This document shows positions 3,938 through 36,927 of a DNA stretch of 42,042 nt, in pieces. The notes beneath the pieces are model-generated. The model was given only the letters and a program-made list of their open reading frames with translations, ran no database searches and had not been told where the DNA came from. Each line of letters begins with the position of its first letter. Positions within the stretch are counted from its first letter, which is position 1. The translations under genes were made by a program, and so were the position numbers. This DNA comes from Escherichia phage Skarpretter, in the sequence record NC_048112.1. One strand, written 5' to 3'.

Positions 3938-3982
3938 ACTATACACTTAAACGTGAATATCTGTTTTAGCAATTTGTGCTAT
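3938..3982 (-). promoter_or_regulatory. conserved promoter element driving SPFH gene
   Basis: Minus strand reads ATAGCACaaatTGCTAAA, 23 nt, TATAGT, tcaACTCAC, ~50 nt before ATG at 3893. Confidence 0.6.
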
Positions 3983-4957: not shown

Positions 4958-6958
4958 ATGGTAATAACCCCCGTCAAGGAAACAAACTTTGCCTGGCAAC
5001 TCATGGAAACGATCGAGGAGCGCATAGCCCGCACGCCGATCGCGGAGTTAATGGCGAAATTTGGCCCAATGCCGCTTGATCCTTACCCGTACCAGTGGGC
5101 CGCTTATGAGGCGGTAGCGGAATGCCTGCGCAAGTACCCCGGCCCGATCATTGTCGAGGCCGCTGTAAGTGCTGGTAAAACGATCATGATCTCCATGCTG
5201 GCGCGGCGCATTGTCGAAATGAAACAACGGGCGCTGGTGATAAGCCGCCAGGCGGAGATCGTGGATCAGGACGCCACGGAGTTATGGAATTTTGACGTTA
5301 AAAACTCCGTGTTTTGCGCCGGGCTGAATAAGAAAAGCACGCATTACCCGGTGGTCTGCGGCTCGGAGAAAACCGTAGCCAACGCGATCGAGGGGAAGTT
5401 AAAAGACTTTGCCCCGCTCTTTCTGGTGATCGATGAATGCCACCAGGTAAACATTGACGATCTGATAGCCTCCGAAACTGCGGAGATCCTGGAGGTGATC
5501 GAGGAAAACGGCGAGCCTTACGAGCGCGTGCGCGTCGGGGAAACGCTGGAGGAAATGATCGCCAATAAGCGCAACTCCTACACGATAATCATTCGTGAAT
5601 TGCAAAGACGTTGCCAGGAGGTACACGGCACCCGCTTACGCGTGATCGGCTACACTGGCACGCCGTACCGGGGCACCGATTCGATCGTAAATGAGGACTA
5701 CGAAACGCCGGGTTTTTGGCGTAAGACGGTGATCCGCATTACAACGCCTTACCTGGTTAAAGTCGGCTCCGTTGTGCCAACGTTCTTTGGCTCCTCCGCG
5801 CTGGGTTACGATCTCTCTGAGTTTGACCAATTCAAGGAGGAGGGCTTAACGGACTTTAGCGACGAGCAATTAAAGGCCATGCAACGCAAGATAGCGCGTG
5901 AGAAGGATTTAACGCACGCAATCATGGCTGAGGTGTACGAGCTAACAAAACGCCGTAACGGCGTTCTGGTGACGTGCTCCGGCGTCGATCACTGCCACGA
6001 GGCCGCAAGCGCGTTACCGGAGGGCGTGACCTATGCGATCATCACGGAGAAAACCACAACCCGCGATCGAATGGACATTATCGCCGGGGCGAAATCCGGC
6101 GCGATAAAGTTTGTCTTTCAGGTCATGGCGCTTACAACTGGCGTTAACGTGCCACCCTGGGACACGTCCGTAATTCTGCGCCGTATCGGCTCGCTAACGC
6201 TGCTCGTGCAACTGCTGGGGCGCGGTATGCGCATTCTGAAAAAAGAGCATATAGCGGCGGGCATGGTGAAAAAAGATCACCTCGTTTTGGACTACTCCGG
6301 CACTATGGCGGCTATGGGTTCCCTGTTTGAAGATCCGATCCTGGAGGATTACACATACCAATCTGAGCAAGTGGGCGAGAAAACCAAAGAGTGCCCGGAC
6401 TGCTTAACGATGAATACAGAAAAGGCCCGCCGTTGCTCCGGGATCGTGAACGGTGAAAGGTGCTGGCATTTCTTCCAATCAAAGACCTGTGACGACGATG
6501 TAGACGGATCGACGGGTCGCATTCTCCGCCCAGGATGCGGGGCCGAAAATGACATAGTAGCCAAAAATTGCCGTTGCTGCGGTAAGCGGCTGATCGACTT
6601 TAACAAAAACCTGTCAGGCCAACATTACACGGAGGGGGATTATTGCAACGTGGTAGATTGGGAGCCGCAAGTAGGCCGGGGCGGCTCGTTTGCGATCCAG
6701 TACACGTTGGAGAAAGACGGGATCACGTTTAAGGCGTGGGAAATCCACTGGTTAACGTCCAACAATCCGGGCGCGTATCAGGTCTGGAAAACGTTTGTTA
6801 ATACCCACGTTTTCGACGAAACCGGACGTAAGACGCTGCGCAACTGCCGCACCCCGGAGGCGGTGTTAAAGAACGTGCATTACCTCATGAAGCCAAAGCG
6901 CGTTACGCACCGTAAGACGGGCGGCGGCAAAGATACCATTAACAAAAAGGTGTTTTGA
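4958..6958 (+). CDS. superfamily 2 DNA helicase (DEAH-type) with C-terminal Cys-rich zinc-binding region
   Basis: 666 aa; Walker A AVSAGKT, Walker B VIDECHQ, motif VI-like LLGRGMR; C-terminal CPDC...CRCCGK cluster. Confidence 0.8.
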   Translation: MVITPVKETNFAWQLMETIEERIARTPIAELMAKFGPMPLDPYPYQWAAYEAVAECLRKYPGPIIVEAAVSAGKTIMISMLARRIVEMKQRALVISRQAEIVDQDATELWNFDVKNSVFCAGLNKKSTHYPVVCGSEKTVANAIEGKLKDFAPLFLVIDECHQVNIDDLIASETAEILEVIEENGEPYERVRVGETLEEMIANKRNSYTIIIRELQRRCQEVHGTRLRVIGYTGTPYRGTDSIVNEDYETPGFWRKTVIRITTPYLVKVGSVVPTFFGSSALGYDLSEFDQFKEEGLTDFSDEQLKAMQRKIAREKDLTHAIMAEVYELTKRRNGVLVTCSGVDHCHEAASALPEGVTYAIITEKTTTRDRMDIIAGAKSGAIKFVFQVMALTTGVNVPPWDTSVILRRIGSLTLLVQLLGRGMRILKKEHIAAGMVKKDHLVLDYSGTMAAMGSLFEDPILEDYTYQSEQVGEKTKECPDCLTMNTEKARRCSGIVNGERCWHFFQSKTCDDDVDGSTGRILRPGCGAENDIVAKNCRCCGKRLIDFNKNLSGQHYTEGDYCNVVDWEPQVGRGGSFAIQYTLEKDGITFKAWEIHWLTSNNPGAYQVWKTFVNTHVFDETGRKTLRNCRTPEAVLKNVHYLMKPKRVTHRKTGGGKDTINKKVF

Positions 6959-22092: not shown

Positions 22093-23046
22093 TTACCCGG
22101 CTTTCTTCGCCGCTTTCAACTTTTCTTTAAGTTGCATAACGGTTGTATAGTCGCCGGATTCGCGGGCTTTCTCTAATGCCGCCTCTAAACCGTGGATCGT
22201 GGTCTGCGTCGCGCCTGTTTTAACAGCCGGGGCACCCTTCGCCGTCGATTTAGCTTGCGGCCTAAAGCCTGCGCCTTTGTCAATTTCCGCTAACAGATAG
22301 CCCAGGGCTACCGGATCGCCGGAAACGTCTTGCAGTTGTTTACGCAAAGCGGCATTGCGGCCCAGGGCCAACACTGCACCAGCCGGGTTTTTGCTGTTCA
22401 TCAGCAAAGTAAGCTGGAGGTTTTGCGGGATCTCGGCGGCTACTACCTGCTCCGCACGTTCAAAGCCCGGCACCTTTAACACTTTGGCGCGTTCAGCGTT
22501 GTAATTCTGCGTGCGCTCGTTTAGCTTCGCCTGGAGTTTCTCGGCCTGCTGTGCTTTCGAGTGGTTGCGCTCCGTGATCGCGTCACGGGTCTTTAACCAT
22601 TCGGCGTGGGCGGCGTCGTACTTCTCTTGATCCCAATCGATCCCGGCGTCGCTCATTTTCGGAGCGGGTGGGATTTCTTCGGGCAAGTTCTGCGGCGCGG
22701 CCTGCTGCTGCTGGGCGGATTTTTCCTTAAACGCTGCTCGTTGCTCACGCAATTTACTACGCAAGTGTTTTACCAGGTCGGTGTCACCTTCCTGATCTTC
22801 GTCGTCGGCGGCTTGCGAGGCCAAAACTTCACCGTTAAAAGTAAACTCTAACGCTTCGTCGTCCGCTTCGGCGTTCTGCTGTCCGGGATCATCTTCCCCG
22901 TTGTCGTCGTCACCGTCGCCGCCGTCCTGGCCGTCGTCGTTGTCGTCGCGCTGGGTTTCCTGCTCCTGGTTCTGCATCTGCTCGTAAGCGCTCGCGCCTG
23001 CGTCGTCGTTTAAATCGGTGTTGTTCTCTGCATCATTTCCGAACAT
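22093..23046 (-). CDS. scaffolding protein
   Basis: 317 aa, very acidic Asp/Glu-rich N-terminus, coiled-coil, basic C-terminal helix KLKAAKKAG; immediately upstream of coat. Confidence 0.75.
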   Translation of the reverse strand: MFGNDAENNTDLNDDAGASAYEQMQNQEQETQRDDNDDGQDGGDGDDDNGEDDPGQQNAEADDEALEFTFNGEVLASQAADDEDQEGDTDLVKHLRSKLREQRAAFKEKSAQQQQAAPQNLPEEIPPAPKMSDAGIDWDQEKYDAAHAEWLKTRDAITERNHSKAQQAEKLQAKLNERTQNYNAERAKVLKVPGFERAEQVVAAEIPQNLQLTLLMNSKNPAGAVLALGRNAALRKQLQDVSGDPVALGYLLAEIDKGAGFRPQAKSTAKGAPAVKTGATQTTIHGLEAALEKARESGDYTTVMQLKEKLKAAKKAG

Positions 23047-23144
23047 GTTTTACTCTCCGTACAATACGCGATGTTTAGCCCCATCGGTGGGAACAAAACG
23101 GAGTGTAAAGCAAAGTTTGCGACATTGGCAAGGGGTGAATACAC

Positions 23145-23175
23145 GAAAAAATCCCCCCAGCACGGAGCCAGGGGG
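23145..23175 (-). terminator. rho-independent terminator ending the two-gene unit inserted between portal and scaffold
   Basis: Minus strand CCCCC-13 nt loop-GGGGG followed by ATTTTTTCG. Confidence 0.55.
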
Positions 23176-23644: not shown

Positions 23645-24100
23645 TCAAAATGGAATATCAAGATCAGGATCTTTCTTTGGTGCTGGCTCCACGATCTCCG
23701 CGTCCTCGGCGTCGATCTCCTGCTGTGGCTTGTCGTCTGCCGGGATGATCTCACTCTCAACCGGGCCTTTGTAGGCGATAGCCTTAAACCGGGCGATCTT
23801 GCCCTGCAACTGCGTTTCTGTCCGGTACGCGGCGGCACGGTGGCGGCTTAACTCGGTTTCGTACTTCTCGATCATATCCTTCGCTACGCTGTCGATCGGC
23901 GCTGGCTCGTATTCGATCTCAACGTCTTTAACGGCGAGTAGTGCCCAGGTGCCAAACATGCGGAGGCTGTCGGCGTTGCCGTTTGGGCCGTAGCTCTCGT
24001 GCTGCGGGTTGGTGAAAACTTCTACTTTGCCCTCGGTGCCCTGGTAGGTTCCGGCGTCAACGCACTGGCAAATGTAAAGGCGGGTCGTGATAGTCTGCAT
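23645..24100 (-). CDS. hypothetical protein with SSB-like C-terminal tip (..KKDPDLDIPF)
   Basis: ~151 aa from ATG at 24100 (GAGGAG SD); acidic disordered C-terminus ending DLDIPF, as in SSB. Confidence 0.6.
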   Translation of the reverse strand: MQTITTRLYICQCVDAGTYQGTEGKVEVFTNPQHESYGPNGNADSLRMFGTWALLAVKDVEIEYEPAPIDSVAKDMIEKYETELSRHRAAAYRTETQLQGKIARFKAIAYKGPVESEIIPADDKPQQEIDAEDAEIVEPAPKKDPDLDIPF

Positions 24101-24146
24101 GTTCTGATCTCCTCGGTTGGGTTCACGTTGTCGTGAATGTGAGGAG

Positions 24147-24191
24147 ACTATAGCCCCATCCGTGGGGCTTGTCTTTAGCAAAAAGTGCTAT
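24147..24191 (-). promoter_or_regulatory. conserved promoter element driving the 24100 unit
   Basis: Minus strand ATAGCACttttTGCTAAA, 23 nt, TATAGT, ctcCTCACAttcac. Confidence 0.6.
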
Positions 24192-26428
24192 TCCTGGTTT
24201 GCGCTCTGCGCCGCTGCATTCAGGAGGCGATCCGCGTTGCGCTCGTCGGCCTGCTGCTGGTCGCGGGTAAACTGCTGCATAAGCTGGATCACTTCCACCA
24301 GCTGATCGTGCTTAATGCCTGCGGTTTTGGCGATGGTTTCCAGCGTCTGCGCGTCGGTCAAGCGTCCATCTTTCGCGGCTTTCTCTGCGGTCACTTGCAG
24401 GTTAAGCGCTTTGATGTTCAGATCCTTATCTTTCAACGCCAGATCGGTTTGCTTGTTCTGCGCGTTCATCAGATCAGCCGTGGCTTTCTTGTCCTCTGCC
24501 ATTGCTGCAACCATCATTGGATCAGGCTGGTTCTGTTTCGCTTCCTGCGCCTGCTGCAACATCGCTTTTTCTTCGTCCGTTTCCGGCTGAATAATGCCGT
24601 TCATAATCATCTGATTACGGCTATATTCGCGGAAGTCCTGCAACCCTTCGCCGTCCATGTTCATCAGGATCAGGCTCATGACGATCGCCGCGTTAGGATC
24701 TTGCGGGTTCATGGATTGTAACAGGTTGGTGAGGTTGCGCACCGTCGCCTGGCGGCGGGTTTGGCTGCTCTCGCCTACGCTGCTCTCAACTTCGTATTTG
24801 CCTTTGGTCAGGTCGTTTAGCGCGATCTGCTGTTTGGTCTTACGGTCGATTACTGCGCCCTGTAACAACACCATATCGTCGCTGCCGTCCTCATTCACGA
24901 CGCGGACATAATCGACGGAGCCGTAAACCTCGCGGGCCATTTCGAGCCATACTTTGCCAGCGTGGCGCAAGGATTTTGCGAGGTTGTCCATATACAGCGC
25001 CCCTTGTCCGTCCATGCGGGCAAAGATTGCCTCCACGGTTTCGGTTGCAAGGTTCGACGGCATAGATTCAACCTGGCTTGCGCCTACGATCTGTTGAATG
25101 GTTCCGCCCGTGTACTGGAGGATCGCGGCAAGGTTCGCGTTTAGCGGCGCTGAGGGGGTATAACCCAGCACGCCACCCGGCGCAATGATATTGCCTTGAT
25201 CGTCGCGCAAGCTCTCAACCGGAAGGTAAGCCGGGCGCTCCTTGTTACGGTTGCCCCACGCGTTAGCCAGCGGGCCGGGCACCATGTTTACATCAAGGAT
25301 CGGGATATTGTCGCCGCCTGCCTGGGTGGCGTTGTCCGCCAGCATGGAAACGATCAGGTTTTCCAGGCGCTGCGCGTCGGTTGCCAGCGTGGCGTGCCCT
25401 GCGATCCTTTCCTGGTTGTCAACGAATGAGCGGCGAGCGTATACCGGGATCAGCGGAATGTAACACCCTGGGATGCGCTCCATTGGCTCCAGCCATTCGC
25501 CACCACTGAGGACGCCGCAATAGATACGAGGTTTTTTTACTTTGCGCTCTTTGCCCTTTTTAAACCCGGCGTCGCGTAACTCGTCCTCGATCTTGGCGAT
25601 CTGATCTTCCTCATAAACCGCCGTTTCTTGCGTCATGGGGTTTTGATAGCTGATCACGGTGACTTCCTCGATCCGCTTCTCATAGTAGCGGGCAAGGTAT
25701 ACCGCGTCCGGCGTACACCAATCAAATTGCTTGCCAGTGTCCAGCATTTCGAGGCTTTCCGGGGCCATAGCCGTTGGGTATTGCTCCTCGTATGCGTCCG
25801 GGTCAATGCTGAAAAGCTCCGTTGCCCACATAGCATCGCTGCGATCGTACTGCTTTGAGTTCTGATCAAAGAATACGCACGACGCCGGATCGTATACCGG
25901 GTGGAAAGTAATATGCCGCGCTTCGCTGTCCGGGTTGTACTCGTCCTCTAAACAGGTGTCCATGCGGAAGCAACCAAACCCGCCCGTTACCGCGTCGTCA
26001 AAGGCGTTATCGATCGCCTCGCACCCGCTGGACTCGTTGAAGTCGGCGCGAAATTTGCCGTTCAGCTTGTCGGCTAACTCCTCGGACGCTTCGCCGTCTT
26101 TCGGGCGATAGGTGACGTTTACGCGGTTTAGGCGGTAATCGGTGATAATGCGATCGACTTCACGCGCCAGCTTGTTAAGCTCAAAGCGCGGGTATTTTTT
26201 AAACCGATCGTCGTCCATGTTCCAGCCGGAGTTGGTCGATCCTTCCCATTGTGCGCCGGGCACGCGGACGAATCGCAACACCTCGATCATTTTCTTACGG
26301 CTGGTTTCCTCGTTCGCAAACTGCGTTGAGATACGTTTACGGGCGCGGGCGTGTTCCTTGTCCTCGCTCTTGCTCATTTTACGCGGGGTTTTCCCCTCGT
26401 TGGTTTCCAGGTCGTTACGGTCTGCCAT
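24188..26428 (-). CDS. portal protein (P22 gp1-like)
   Basis: ~746 aa; YRPKDGEASEELADKLNGKFRAD (P22 [22 protein letters not shown]), FFDQNSKQYDRSDAMW (P22 IWDSNSKLMDKSDARH); likely ATG at 26428 with AGGGGAG SD. Confidence 0.85.
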   Translation of the reverse strand: MADRNDLETNEGKTPRKMSKSEDKEHARARKRISTQFANEETSRKKMIEVLRFVRVPGAQWEGSTNSGWNMDDDRFKKYPRFELNKLAREVDRIITDYRLNRVNVTYRPKDGEASEELADKLNGKFRADFNESSGCEAIDNAFDDAVTGGFGCFRMDTCLEDEYNPDSEARHITFHPVYDPASCVFFDQNSKQYDRSDAMWATELFSIDPDAYEEQYPTAMAPESLEMLDTGKQFDWCTPDAVYLARYYEKRIEEVTVISYQNPMTQETAVYEEDQIAKIEDELRDAGFKKGKERKVKKPRIYCGVLSGGEWLEPMERIPGCYIPLIPVYARRSFVDNQERIAGHATLATDAQRLENLIVSMLADNATQAGGDNIPILDVNMVPGPLANAWGNRNKERPAYLPVESLRDDQGNIIAPGGVLGYTPSAPLNANLAAILQYTGGTIQQIVGASQVESMPSNLATETVEAIFARMDGQGALYMDNLAKSLRHAGKVWLEMAREVYGSVDYVRVVNEDGSDDMVLLQGAVIDRKTKQQIALNDLTKGKYEVESSVGESSQTRRQATVRNLTNLLQSMNPQDPNAAIVMSLILMNMDGEGLQDFREYSRNQMIMNGIIQPETDEEKAMLQQAQEAKQNQPDPMMVAAMAEDKKATADLMNAQNKQTDLALKDKDLNIKALNLQVTAEKAAKDGRLTDAQTLETIAKTAGIKHDQLVEVIQLMQQFTRDQQQADERNADRLLNAAAQSANQE

Positions 26429-26478
26429 TCTCGGCGCTCCCCTTGTTGATTCTGGCAAAGTCTAACATGATGCGAAAA

Positions 26479-26522
26479 ATAGCACGAATTGCTAAAGCAT
26501 TTCACGTTAAAGTGATTATAGT
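26479..26522 (+). promoter_or_regulatory. conserved promoter element driving the 3-gene cassette
   Basis: ATAGCACgaatTGCTAAA, 22 nt, TATAGT, aatCTCACAttcac, ~35 nt before ATG at 26557. Confidence 0.6.
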
Positions 26523-26556
26523 AATCTCACATTCACGAACAAATGAGGGCTTTAAA

Positions 26557-26763
26557 ATGTTAACTTTCGTAATCGTTGTTGCGGCGCTGTCCTGGATCGT
26601 CTGCTCATGGCTCGTTGGCGCGGCTGCTGGGCGGTACTTCGCCAGCCCGGTTTGCGCGTGGGTCTACCTGGGCGTTTCGCTGGTGCTGTCGCCGCTGGTG
26701 GGCCTGCTGGTGCTGTTTGGCTCTCACCTGCTGGACTACATCGAATCGCGGGGCCGCGCATGA
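26557..26763 (+). CDS. small membrane protein (two predicted TM helices)
   Basis: 68 aa, two hydrophobic helices; GAGGG SD; ATGA overlap with next ORF. Confidence 0.55.
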   Translation: MLTFVIVVAALSWIVCSWLVGAAAGRYFASPVCAWVYLGVSLVLSPLVGLLVLFGSHLLDYIESRGRA

Positions 26764-33401: not shown

Positions 33402-34973
33402 TCAGCGTTCAGCCAGCGGCGGCGGCGATGCGTCGTTAGCCGTCAAAATCTCCTCGCCGTCATTGTTGATAAACGAGCGGATCAGCTGCTTTTTGATCGC
33501 GTTCTCGATCGAGCGCTTGATCTGGTATGGCGTTTTCGCGGTGCGCTCCGCCATTTGGTTTGTGGTGTCCATGCGTTCATGCTGCCCGCCGCGTGCCATG
33601 AGGAAATCGATCACGTCCTGCTCGCTGTTGCTCGGCCTGGTGAGTCTCGGATCTGGCTTGTTCTTCGACTCGCCGCGCTGCGCTTTCTTCTGCTCCTCCT
33701 GCTGCGCTACCAGTTCAGCGGCTAACGTCGCCTCGTCCACCAGTTCGCACGCGTTCAGGTAGCCACCACAAAACAGCGGGTCAATCGGGTTAAGTCCTTT
33801 CAGCGGCTGCGCTGGGCGGATCGAATCCTCAAACTCTGCGAGATATTCCGCCCGGTGCGCTTCTGCTTCGTCGTCCGGGAAGATCTGCATTGTCCGTTTA
33901 GTCAGGCGCAAGAGTTGGGCGATCCCCCCACCACGGCGCTTGCCTGCTGCCATGATGATTTTATCCGGCTGGGTTTTGTCCTGCGTGAGCGAAAACGTTT
34001 TCCAAACCGCACCCTTTGCCGCGCCACCTCCGCGTGACTCCAGCACGAGATAAGGCGATCGCTCGGCCTCCTTGCTTACGTGGGGAATGAAGATCCCGCA
34101 CGCTCCCAGCGCCAGGGCAAAGCGATAACCGCAAAACGTAATGTACTGCTGATCGTCGTTGCTGTTTTCGTCCAGGGGTTTACCGTTGCGCTCGGCGCTG
34201 GATAGGTGAAAACTCTTTGAGTCATAAACAACCATGCACACCTGGCGATCCCCGGCAAAGTCTTTGATCTGGCGGATCTGGCGTAATGCGTTCTCACCCC
34301 ATACCGGGCGATCGAGTTGTACGACGCGCTCAACCTCGCGCCCGTCCGGGCCGATCTCTTTCACGGTCTTAACTTTGGTTGTGTCGGTCAGCGCTGCGGG
34401 GTGCTCGCAGATCAGGACGTGATCCAGGATGTTTTCGCCCCACTCCAGTTGCCAGGCGGAAAGGCAGTTAGTGACGGTTTCGGCGTCCTCGGTAAAAAAC
34501 ACGCTGATCCCTTTCTTCACCATGAAAGCATCCAGGAAAGGTCTACCCGTTGCCACGCACGCCGCCAGCATGGACAAGAGCGTAGTTTTGCCCACGCCTG
34601 GCCCGGCGTTGATCTCGTTGATCGTGTTCATGTTAAACAGGTATTGCACAAACGGCTTTGGGATCTTCGGTTTCGGGTTCTCAATGAATACGGAGGCGGG
34701 CTTACGCTCCGGCTTTGGCTGCTGCGGGCCTGCGTCCTCGTTGTCCGGCTCGTCCACCTGCTCGGAGTGATCGGCAAGGCGTGCTAACTCCGCGTCGCTA
34801 TAGTCGGGAGCCTGCGCCGCTAACCACTCCTCCGGCATGTCCGGCACGGTGTCGCCCAACTCTCCCCAGGTCTGCATGTCCTCGTAATCCGGCTCGAATT
34901 GCTCCGGCTCCGGGGTTGGCTCCTGCTGCTGTAAAGAGCCGTTGCCACGGTGTTTTGTGGGGTCGAATTTCAT
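33402..34973 (-). CDS. P-loop NTPase (RecA/DnaB-like Walker A), possible replicative ATPase/helicase
   Basis: 523 aa; acidic disordered N-terminus, Walker A NAGPGVGKTTL, Walker B-like VCMVVYDS; first gene of leftward operon. Confidence 0.65.
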   Translation of the reverse strand: MKFDPTKHRGNGSLQQQEPTPEPEQFEPDYEDMQTWGELGDTVPDMPEEWLAAQAPDYSDAELARLADHSEQVDEPDNEDAGPQQPKPERKPASVFIENPKPKIPKPFVQYLFNMNTINEINAGPGVGKTTLLSMLAACVATGRPFLDAFMVKKGISVFFTEDAETVTNCLSAWQLEWGENILDHVLICEHPAALTDTTKVKTVKEIGPDGREVERVVQLDRPVWGENALRQIRQIKDFAGDRQVCMVVYDSKSFHLSSAERNGKPLDENSNDDQQYITFCGYRFALALGACGIFIPHVSKEAERSPYLVLESRGGGAAKGAVWKTFSLTQDKTQPDKIIMAAGKRRGGGIAQLLRLTKRTMQIFPDDEAEAHRAEYLAEFEDSIRPAQPLKGLNPIDPLFCGGYLNACELVDEATLAAELVAQQEEQKKAQRGESKNKPDPRLTRPSNSEQDVIDFLMARGGQHERMDTTNQMAERTAKTPYQIKRSIENAIKKQLIRSFINNDGEEILTANDASPPPLAER

Positions 34974-35074: not shown

Positions 35075-35118
35075 ATAGCACGAATTGCTAAAACAGCTTT
35101 ATGAATACTATGTATAGT
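35075..35118 (+). promoter_or_regulatory. conserved promoter element driving plus-strand island
   Basis: ATAGCACgaatTGCTAAA, 22 nt, TATAGT, tatCTCACAccaac, 32 nt before ATG at 35151. Confidence 0.6.
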
Positions 35119-35150
35119 TATCTCACACCAACGAATTGAGGCAAAACAAA

Positions 35151-35696
35151 ATGACTACAGCAATCACAATGAAAGTAACCCTCGGCGCACTGGCTGGCCT
35201 GATCTCCTACTGCGAAAACAAAAAAATGAAAATGGCAAAGATTCAGGCGCACGTTTCTAACATCGCCTTTATCGAACTGAATCACCCGGCCTTTGCTTAC
35301 GCTAAAGACCTGCTCAACGAGGCCGCTGATAAGCGCCGCACCTTCTCCGGCGTTGCTAACTGCATCCAGGCGGCGATTACTGAGATCAACCGCGTGATCG
35401 ACGCTGCGCACGCTGAGGCCCTGGAAATGGACGCGGTAGTAAATGATTGCGTAACCCGTTTCAAATACTGCATCGATCACTATCAGGCTGAATGCAACGT
35501 TAAAAACGAGATCCACGGCCTCGTGATTGCGAAAGGCTACGCGCTCGGCTGGACGGCTCGCATGATGGTTAAAATGGTGGCTAACGTGTGGCGTTTGGGT
35601 GAGGCGGCGGCAAAGGCACACCGCGCACATACTGCGGCAATGCTGGCGGCGGCTCCGGCTAATGGCTCAATCCCTGATTATGATCTCCCGTTTTAA
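35151..35696 (+). CDS. hypothetical protein with SSB-like C-terminal tip (..SIPDYDLPF)
   Basis: ~181 aa from ATG at 35151 (GAGG SD); C-terminus IPDYDLPF. Confidence 0.6.
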   Translation: MTTAITMKVTLGALAGLISYCENKKMKMAKIQAHVSNIAFIELNHPAFAYAKDLLNEAADKRRTFSGVANCIQAAITEINRVIDAAHAEALEMDAVVNDCVTRFKYCIDHYQAECNVKNEIHGLVIAKGYALGWTARMMVKMVANVWRLGEAAAKAHRAHTAAMLAAAPANGSIPDYDLPF

Positions 35697-35710: not shown

Positions 35711-35754
35711 ATAGCACGAATTGCTAAACGCCGCGTCTAAATACTATGTATAGT
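35711..35754 (+). promoter_or_regulatory. conserved promoter element
   Basis: ATAGCACgaatTGCTAAA, 22 nt, TATAGT, tatCTCACAccaac, before ATG 35788. Confidence 0.6.
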
Positions 35755-36431: not shown

Positions 36432-36887
36432 ATGAAACCACAAGAGATCAAAAAGGCGGGCATCTTCTCAAAGGATGATATTCACTGCTTCACTGACTGC
36501 GGCTACAACTGCAAGGCAAAGGTAAGGGCTGATCTTGAGGCGCATTACGCGCCAATCGCTGCGGCGCTGGGTAACGGCTGGCGCGTTAACATCTGGCACA
36601 ACGGCGGCTGGCACGCTAACCTGGCGCATGATGAATCACAATTTTACCTGAGCGATCGAGCGGTGCGCGGCGGTATCAGTGCAATGAAGGTGGACGCCGA
36701 TCGGTTTGAGGACAACGTAAACCGCTTTGAGGTGTTCAATTACGAATACCCGGAGGGCACCAGCCAGGTTTGGGTGTACGGTAACGATCCGAAAGACGCG
36801 ATCCGCAACGCCTTTAACGCCGTGTCGGAGCGGGTAGTAGCCTACATGGTGCAACAACAAAAGATCCTGGACGCTTTCCCCGGATAG
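36432..36887 (+). CDS. hypothetical protein
   Basis: 151 aa, Trp/Asn/Gly-rich; stop codon lies inside next promoter palindrome. Confidence 0.55.
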   Translation: MKPQEIKKAGIFSKDDIHCFTDCGYNCKAKVRADLEAHYAPIAAALGNGWRVNIWHNGGWHANLAHDESQFYLSDRAVRGGISAMKVDADRFEDNVNRFEVFNYEYPEGTSQVWVYGNDPKDAIRNAFNAVSERVVAYMVQQQKILDAFPG

Positions 36888-36927
36888 CACTTTTTGCTAA
36901 ACGCTCCTCGTAAATACTTGGTATAGT
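36884..36927 (+). promoter_or_regulatory. conserved promoter element
   Basis: ATAGCACttttTGCTAAA, 22 nt, TATAGT, tctTTCACAccaac, before ATG 36959. Confidence 0.6.

Follow-up and report, generated by a model that had tools for sequence, protein, structure and literature searches.

The nine-residue tip at the C-terminus of SSB (single-stranded DNA-binding protein) organises bacterial replication, repair and recombination. Why should a protein unrelated to SSB, encoded in the head gene cluster of a phage, end in a tip of the same kind? We addressed this question for gp28 of Escherichia phage Skarpretter (HOU67_gp28, which is also the best protein match and is labelled only "hypothetical" in the record). 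The window analysed was the whole stretch of 42,042 nucleotides (nt) in sequence record NC_048112.1, which is the phage's complete genome. The gp28 gene is located upstream of the coat gene, with the portal gene (24188..26458; phrog_156, 7e-161) on one side and the scaffold gene (22093..23046; phrog_648, 1.5e-58) on the other. Because the ending is conserved across the whole gp28 family, gp28 probably plugs into, or hijacks, the SSB docking system.

The ending of gp28 and its conservation

The gp28 translation terminates in ...EDAEIVEPAPKKDPDLDIPF, and the C-terminal stretch of the 151-residue product reads ...EIDAEDAEIVEPAPKKDPDLDIPF. A first-pass annotation of the locus had described an acidic SSB-like tail on a protein unrelated to SSB, and a DDDIPF tip on the phage's own SSB. 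Both descriptions were borne out. Six of the nine residues of the gp28 tip KDPDLDIPF coincide with those of the E. coli SSB C-terminal tip (SSB-Ct), MDFDDDIPF, and the phage SSB terminates in MDFDDDIPF, identical to the host tip. BLASTP aligned only the last few residues of gp28 with the phage SSB (E=9.6) and no Pfam match was found for gp28, indicating that the two proteins are unrelated. Endings of the form [ILVFM]-P-F were present in only three of the 851 stop-to-stop open reading frames (ORFs) of at least 30 amino acids (aa) in the whole window, namely SSB, gp28 and a 181-aa protein (35151..35696). All three are real genes with acidic residues immediately preceding the ending. By this count, the SSB-like ending of gp28 is more than chance.

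Two further possibilities were considered for the gene itself. A recent copy of the ssb 3' end was rejected as the origin of the tail, because the codons differ. A longer gp28 ORF started at a TTG (24181) is unlikely, because every homologue begins at the ATG position.

Homologues of gp28 at approximately 30% identity were detected by tblastn of phage genomes in Sortsnevirus, Hungariovirus, Murrayvirus, Kosakonia phage Kc166B and Stutzerimonas phage STP9. A profile-seeded search for relatives gave 27 clusters, and an exhaustive hidden Markov model (HMM) search of 1.84 billion representatives yielded 15 gp28-family proteins only, the most distant at E 1.8e-5 to 2.5e-4. The C-terminus was Pro-Phe in 30 of the 39 family members. 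Tail statistics were computed on 26 distinct 16-residue tails, numbered backwards from the last residue (-1). Pro at -2 and Phe at -1 were invariant (zero entropy), position -3 was I, V or F in 25 tails (1.1 bits) and position -4 was D or E in 20 (1.4 bits). Positions -6 to -12 form a freely variable linker (2.1-3.0 bits). Leu was present at -5 in 14 of the 26 tails, where SSB has Asp. The proposal made in the annotation depended on conservation of the terminal motif among homologues, and the motif proved to be conserved even in the relatives reached by profile only (E 1.8e-5 to 2.5e-4), which terminate in HHIPF, KDSPF, NDIPF, DDIPF, LEIPF and NEVPF. Further distant members end in DDFPF and LDVPF, and the homologue in phage C130_2 carries the tip ADFDPDIPF (seven of nine residues shared with MDFDDDIPF).

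The tip is under purifying selection, and its codons are synonymously variable across the family (ATT/ATA/ATC, CCA/CCT and TTT/TTC). The conserved positions (Phe at -1, Pro at -2, Ile/Val at -3 and mostly Asp at -4) are those read by known SSB-Ct pockets. In the aligned tails, conservation increases toward the free carboxyl end, which is the hallmark of a C-terminal short linear motif. The same linker and tip were present on bodies of different lineages (VVVDTRKDDPLDIPF on P0004 and P0017; WDIDKDGIPF on P0003, P0015 and P0016), indicating that tails have been exchanged and the ending always kept. In gp28 itself, Pro-Phe-COOH stands at the extreme C-terminus (...DIPF followed by the stop codon), with a hydrophobic residue at -3 and acidic residues upstream. 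The motif is presented on a disordered linker, with a predicted local distance difference test (pLDDT) score below 50 for residues 114-143 in an AlphaFold2 model and no secondary structure after residue 109.

Body, tail and cassette of gp28

The AlphaFold2 model of gp28 was built with a 25-sequence alignment. The body (residues 1-110) was modelled with confidence (pLDDT 80-96, means of 10-residue blocks) and contains a CxC motif (C11, C13). According to the model it has a novel fold, made up of a beta-sheet and a 40-residue helix. A 3-4 hydrophobic repeat was read from the alignment in the helix of the family consensus, and oligomerisation through this helix of approximately 40 residues is plausible. 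The whole protein has an isoelectric point of about 4.5. The net charge of the body is -2 (-1 to -7 across the close family P0001-P0029) and that of the last 40 residues is -10 (-4 to -11 across the same proteins). Nothing was found for gp28 in Pfam (E<=1), NCBIfam, PADLOC or a PDB profile search. Neither the N-terminal OB-fold core that defines SSB proteins by sequence profile nor a five-stranded beta-barrel was detected, and the idea of gp28 as an SSB in disguise was rejected (no OB fold, acidic body). Since the body is acidic and non-OB, binding of gp28 to DNA is unlikely.

The annotation had also placed gp28 in an autonomous promoter/terminator unit inserted between portal and scaffold. 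The unit is real, although it harbours two genes, gp28 and the 148-aa gp27, and its promoter belongs to a phage-specific class. By sequence motifs, the cassette has its own promoter on the 5' side (24190-24147) and an intrinsic terminator on the 3' side (23175-23143); the C130_2 cassette has a comparable hairpin and T-run. The 87-nt gap after the portal stop codon contains the palindrome TAGCACTTTTTGCTA, a 23-nt spacer and TATAGT, plus a G+C-rich hairpin; the portal stop codon (24188-24190) lies partly within the palindrome. At the corresponding place in the promoter spacer, a different hairpin was seen in C130_2 and STP9. The Skarpretter hairpin may attenuate read-through from portal, or it may act on RNA stability.

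The palindrome core TAGCA-N5-TGCTA is present in seven exact copies in the genome, compared to 0.65 expected. Apart from the one copy truncated at the end of the window, all six sites are arranged alike: ATAGCAC-N5-GCTAAA is followed by 22-23 nt, TATAGT, a leader of the CTCACA type and a ribosome-binding site, and the ATG lies about 75 nt downstream of the palindrome. TATAGT, TATTAT or TATATT is located at the same distance in every promoter of this TAGCAC-N5-GCTA class. Class sites precede small or replication-side genes (leftward at 3981; rightward at 26480, 35076, 35712 and 36885), and none was found before the terminase, portal, scaffold or coat genes of Skarpretter. By promoter class, the cassette appears to belong with the non-structural genes of the phage, though it lies inside the head cluster. 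The same motif was present directly 5' of the family gene in C130_2, STP9, KMB41, IME_EC2 and sortsyn, and likewise in three distant metagenomic contigs (L009, L011 and L013), many of whose small genes are also preceded by it. It is common to C130_2, Kc166B, the Murrayvirus phages and distant metagenomic phages. A literature search gave no description of the TAGCAC-N5-GCTA promoter motif.

TTGCTA was rejected as a -35 hexamer, since 22-23 nt separate it from the -10 element. The likeness to a sigma-54 promoter is superficial (the GG/GC spacing is 2 nt short and the first G is A). Being too far from the -10 element for a -35 and wrongly spaced for sigma-54, the palindrome resembles a binding site for a dimeric activator.

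The second gene of the cassette, gp27, is 54% identical to C130_2 gp24. Weaker, significant homology was detected in the gene directly 3' of the family gene in Kc166B, L010, L014, sortkaff, KMB41 and IME_EC2. Nothing was found for gp27 in Pfam, NCBIfam, PADLOC or PHROGs. The conserved pairing of the genes suggests that gp28 and gp27 are a functional pair.

How many other genes the portal-scaffold slot contains, and which ones, differs from phage to phage. Remote members of the gp28 family are located outside head modules, in runs of small early-type genes beside AraC-type regulators. In the P22-like phages of the family, a gene of the Acb2/Tad1-hairpin type (anti-CBASS/Thoeris sponge) was observed (L010 1-97; L014 334-630; L015 and L016 342-641) approximately 700 bp 5' of the large-terminase gene, with two small genes intervening, so accessory anti-defence genes cluster around the packaging/head module in these phages. 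The promoter class, the variable slot, the remote members outside head modules and the nearby anti-defence gene point to an accessory, host-directed function of gp28 over a structural one.

Two neighbouring features were also observed. A conserved gene of approximately 77 aa, starting MS-x-K-[LV]-[KR]-x-R-[FYL]-[VI]..., lies directly 5' of distant gp28 relatives, before the promoter motif. In the window, the plus-strand region 26480-26763 has a promoter of the same class that is directed away from the portal gene. It faces a 68-aa hydrophobic, membrane-like ORF (MLTFVIVVAALSW...) that begins near 26557, between portal and terminase on the opposite strand. C130_2 has small genes at the matching place, and the region looks like another inserted accessory unit.

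Table 1. Features of the gp28 locus, of the other tip-bearing genes and of related contigs. Positions refer to the window unless a contig is named.
Feature	Position	Strand	Remarks
gp28 coding sequence	23645..24100	minus	151 aa + stop; ATG at 24100, stop at 23645-23647
gp28 folded body, residues 1-110	23771..24100	minus	strands 2-15, 26-29, 51-64; amphipathic helix 69-109 (model)
gp28 disordered acidic tail, residues 111-151	23648..23770	minus	conserved YKGP-x-E and DAEIV, variable linker
gp28 tip KDPDLDIPF	23648..23674	minus	6/9 residues as in E. coli SSB-Ct MDFDDDIPF
Shine-Dalgarno GAGGAG	24109-24114	minus	8 nt 5' of gp28 ATG; read from sequence
Promoter-class palindrome TAGCACTTTTTGCTA (TAGCA-N5-TGCTA)	24176..24190	minus	centre ~43 nt 5' of predicted start site
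-10-like TATAGT	24147..24152	minus	23 nt 3' of palindrome; promoter scan
Weak -35-like AAGACA	24170-24175	minus	promoter scan
7-bp G+C-rich hairpin AGCCCCA-CGGA-TGGGGCT	24152..24169		sequence as on minus strand; in gp28 promoter spacer, just after portal gene
Partner gene gp27, 148 aa	23189..23635	minus	9 nt after gp28; GAGGAA Shine-Dalgarno overlaps gp28 stop
Intrinsic terminator	23143..23175	minus	9-bp stem, 7 G-C pairs, then ATTTTTT; closes gp28-gp27 cassette
TAGCA-N5-TGCTA copies	1-15, 3967-3981, 24176-24190, 26480-26494, 35076-35090, 35712-35726, 36885-36899		
Canonical phage SSB	9101..9637	plus	Pfam PF00436 at 1.1e-40, OB fold; reference tip, outside gp28 cassette
Second tip-bearing unit	35076..35696	plus	palindrome 35076-35090, TATAGT 35113-35118, 181-aa protein 35151..35696
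EC2-type tip deletion	L007 4380-4410, L008 4400-4430		new stop overlaps downstream-gene ATG (GTATGA)
~77-aa conserved gene	L009 5649-5882; L011 4292-4522; L013 526-762		absent from Skarpretter

Other carriers of the ending and candidate roles

A search for other phage proteins with this ending, suggested in the first-pass annotation, found it on non-SSB proteins, both in Skarpretter and elsewhere. The 181-aa protein of Skarpretter terminates in PDYDLPF. Its gene stands first behind another promoter of the TAGCAC-N5-GCTA class and is divergent from the AAA_25 helicase gene (33402-34973). Among the 14 homologues covering at least 98% of the 181-aa query, 13 end in Y-[DE]-[IL]-P-F, SELPF or NEIPF, and the 14th (P0056) has a differing N-terminal part. 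The bodies of the homologues are 58-93% identical, and relatives that match the N-terminal half only are without the ending. The protein contains HAEALEM-type motifs, which are repeated in longer relatives; nothing was found for it in Pfam, PHROG, NCBIfam or PADLOC.

IMG/VR viral contigs were scanned for exact DDDIPF followed by a stop codon (loci L020-L139), as a sample and not a census. At least 121 such ORFs were detected. Among the matches listed, 68 had a canonical SSB core (iterative HMM search), and the other ORFs of at least 60 aa numbered 43, in 25 clusters. Several of these clusters are alternative SSB families (phrog_7364, 743, 14578, 9002 and T7-type SSB). The tip was also present on six superfamily 2 (SF2) helicase ORFs (ResIII + Helicase_C; e.g. 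L119, L098 and L055), an AAA_25 helicase (L024), a Cas4-domain exonuclease (L068), phrog_2544 and phrog_4477 proteins (function unassigned) and approximately 15 orphans. In this sample, the tip appears to have been grafted onto unrelated phage proteins fairly often. As a small, acidic protein without a nucleic-acid-handling domain, gp28 looks to be an unusual carrier. Separately, a third unrelated tip carrier was observed in one small cluster: a 176-aa protein, unassigned to any family, terminates in QMRDDIPF (L011 3745-4275; also L012 610-1140) and is encoded two genes 5' of the distant gp28 relative P0031.

The likeliest role of gp28 is that of an SSB-tip mimic working off DNA, either as a decoy or as an adaptor. 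Since its body is unlikely to bind DNA, we tentatively favour the off-DNA decoy, which we regard as possible and somewhat short of probable. In this mechanism, the gp28 tail would dock in the SSB-Ct pocket of one or more SSB-interacting proteins and would draw a host SSB-interacting enzyme off SSB-coated phage single-stranded DNA (ssDNA) intermediates, the ssDNA presumably being produced by the phage's own exonuclease/Erf/SSB module. Candidate targets are the ssDNA exonuclease ExoI (SbcB), RecQ, RecJ or a tip-dependent defence component. The protein may act jointly with its conserved partner gp27. Leu at -5 may reflect selectivity for a subset of partners, sparing the functions of the phage SSB, as opposed to blanket competition. 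A wider claim, that gp28 relatives are natural inhibitors of the SSB interactome, working as multivalent non-DNA-binding decoys, co-expressed with non-structural genes, that titrate a specific host enzyme or defence component, with the tip as a portable module on unrelated phage proteins, is more doubtful.

Several observations weigh against the decoy. The phage's own SSB carries the canonical tip, and indiscriminate competition would harm the phage too. The choice of decoy over adaptor was made because of the acidic, non-OB body alone, and the early timing of gp28 that we infer derives from its promoter class. Natural relatives have also dispensed with the tip. In the Murrayvirus EC2 type (five clusters), the protein terminates at the conserved DAEIV with the body kept, and the DNA shows a clean deletion of 13 tail codons (about 45 nt). 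In three short distant relatives (96-107 aa), the whole protein is the body, without the tail. The body is kept in these tip-less relatives, which indicates that it has a role of its own and that the tip is dispensable in some settings. Three structural neighbours of approximately 100 aa in BFVD are also body only. Across the family, the tip is, as far as these comparisons go, an add-on retained by most members, and the EC2-type deletions provide natural tip-less variants usable for comparison.

The same relatives lend weight to the reading of gp28 as an adaptor, in which the body (possibly with gp27) would bind a target and the tail would recruit an SSB-interacting enzyme there (a helicase, primase, polymerase subunit or nuclease), the tip being a positive handle as it is on SSB. 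We consider this unlikely, though a serious contender. A body that is conserved, and retained when the tip is deleted, argues that it binds something or does other work by itself, and directly 3' of gp28 there is a conserved partner gene. Exact DDDIPF on enzymes that would profit from recruitment (the SF2 helicases, AAA_25 helicase and Cas4-domain exonuclease among the matches listed) is consistent with such a handle, as are the T7 gp4 helicase-primase and gp2.5, whose common acidic, Phe-ended tails use the same polymerase site (PMC12339929). However, no target can be proposed for the gp28 body, which is without a fold or family match, and gp28 is without any enzymatic or DNA-binding domain to which recruitment would be of use.

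It is rather improbable, though still to be taken seriously, that the tip is a private phage code, read by a phage-encoded partner and not by the host SSB interactome. Candidate readers would be the SF2 helicase (4958..6958), the Erf annealase, the PDDEXK exonuclease and the AAA_25 helicase, with SSB, gp28 and the 181-aa protein all clients of one phage hub. Three Skarpretter proteins carry the ending, two of them behind the same promoter class, and the gene of the 181-aa protein adjoins that of the replicative helicase. Sak4 of phage HK620 depends on the C-terminal hexapeptide NDYPPF of its cognate SSB (PMC5928155). All the sequenced phages with the gp28 family that were examined also have a helicase-exonuclease-Erf-SSB module. 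By contrast, the phage SSB tip is identical to the host MDFDDDIPF, which points to host partners, and phage readers of the tip are candidates only.

Two other host peptides resemble the ending. The beta-clamp-binding hexapeptide is Q-L-x-L-x-L/F (e.g. QLSLPL in Hda), and the conserved C-terminal peptide of FtsZ is DYLDIPAFLR. Mimicry of either would direct gp28 to the sliding clamp, or to ZipA/FtsA and cell division. The commonest tails, [DP]-L-D-I-P-F, fit x-L-x-[IL]-x-F, LDIP is also present in FtsZ, and D-Y-D-I-P-F of the 181-aa family recalls the FtsZ DYLDIPAF. Nevertheless, such mimicry is very improbable. The conserved Gln and Leu at positions 1 and 2 of the clamp motif are not a feature of the gp28-family tails: the hallmark Gln was present in none of the 26 tails and Leu at -5 in 14 only. 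The FtsZ peptide needs an extra Ala and a following Leu and is not at the chain end, and the invariant Pro at -2 and strictly terminal Phe are SSB-Ct features (alpha-carboxylate recognition).

Finally, a role of gp28 in head assembly or as a packaged protein (scaffold-like, decoration or injected), with the tail serving assembly, is barely credible: the portal-scaffold position recurs in about ten phage lineages and there is a weak PHROG match to the scaffold family phrog_2932 (E=6e-4, residues 73-136), but this match is marginal, confined to the long helix and far from a significant full-length profile match, the cassette has its own terminator and a promoter of the non-structural class, the other genes of the slot vary in number and identity between phages, and the remote family members lie outside head modules.

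Comparison with known systems

Morons are autonomous promoter-gene-terminator insertions in phage late operons. The gp28 cassette is like them in having its own promoter and intrinsic terminator, in its insertion between portal and scaffold and in the variable content of that slot. It differs in that the promoter is of the phage's TAGCAC-N5-GCTA class and not generic sigma-70, and in that it contains two genes.

In E. coli, the SSB tip MDFDDDIPF recruits at least 17 partners; its Pro and Phe fit into a hydrophobic pocket in RecO and in ExoI, where the sites of binding are basic (PMC7145534). DinG binding is lost with the F177C change (PMC11981726). The gp28 tail is similar to SSB-Ct in being disordered and acidic and in ending with a hydrophobic residue followed by Pro-Phe-COOH, and the two invariant residues of the gp28 family are the ones that go into the hydrophobic pocket of the SSB partner. 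By contrast, the gp28 tip is carried by a net-acidic, non-OB body of predicted novel fold and not by an ssDNA-binding core, and the family consensus has Leu and Pro where SSB has Asp and Phe (-5 and -7).

Phage precedents exist for parts of this arrangement. T7 gp4 and gp2.5 (PMC12339929) demonstrate that a non-SSB phage protein can have the same kind of tail as the phage SSB, so that one binding site is addressable by both. However, in T7 the tail sits on a replication enzyme and is read by the phage polymerase, while gp28 is without an enzymatic domain and has a host-type IPF tip. The HK620 SSB/Sak4 pair (PMC5928155) indicates that phage proteins can read an SSB-type tail (NDYPPF), though in HK620 this tail is on a genuine SSB. 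Closest is Bas52_0087 of a BASEL phage, which has two predicted OB folds and a conserved FDDDIPF tip and triggers the DRT10 defence; its authors propose competition with, or displacement of, ExoI (SbcB) (bioRxiv 10.64898/2026.04.29.721553). Both proteins are phage-encoded, other than the canonical SSB, and carry the SSB tip, but Bas52_0087 has an SSB-like architecture, whereas gp28 has no OB fold and probably does not bind DNA. A literature search turned up neither the gp28 family nor any non-OB phage protein described as having an SSB tip, the Bas52_0087 preprint being the nearest. The possible role of gp28 also ties in with recent evidence for the monitoring of ExoI and phage SSB-like proteins by defence systems.

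If the decoy were confirmed, gp28 would be a genetically encoded mimic, tuned by evolution and placed on a scaffold that does not bind DNA, and would show how phages rewire or silence the SSB hub. The escape of phage recombination intermediates from host ssDNA exonucleases might be accounted for in this way, and natural variants (Leu at -5, Gly at -4) would report on partner selectivity. The SSB tip is also pursued as an antibiotic target through synthetic mimetics, and synthetic SSB-Ct peptides and mimetics inhibit the interactions of SSB with its partners (PMC10143822, PMC5872125). A tip off DNA that contends with SSB for partners is the concept common to the mimetics and gp28, but the mimetics are man-made, while gp28 would be natural and probably multivalent. 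Set beside these systems, gp28 appears as a known docking motif on a new, uncharacterised carrier family, for which an inhibitory or adaptor use is plausible.

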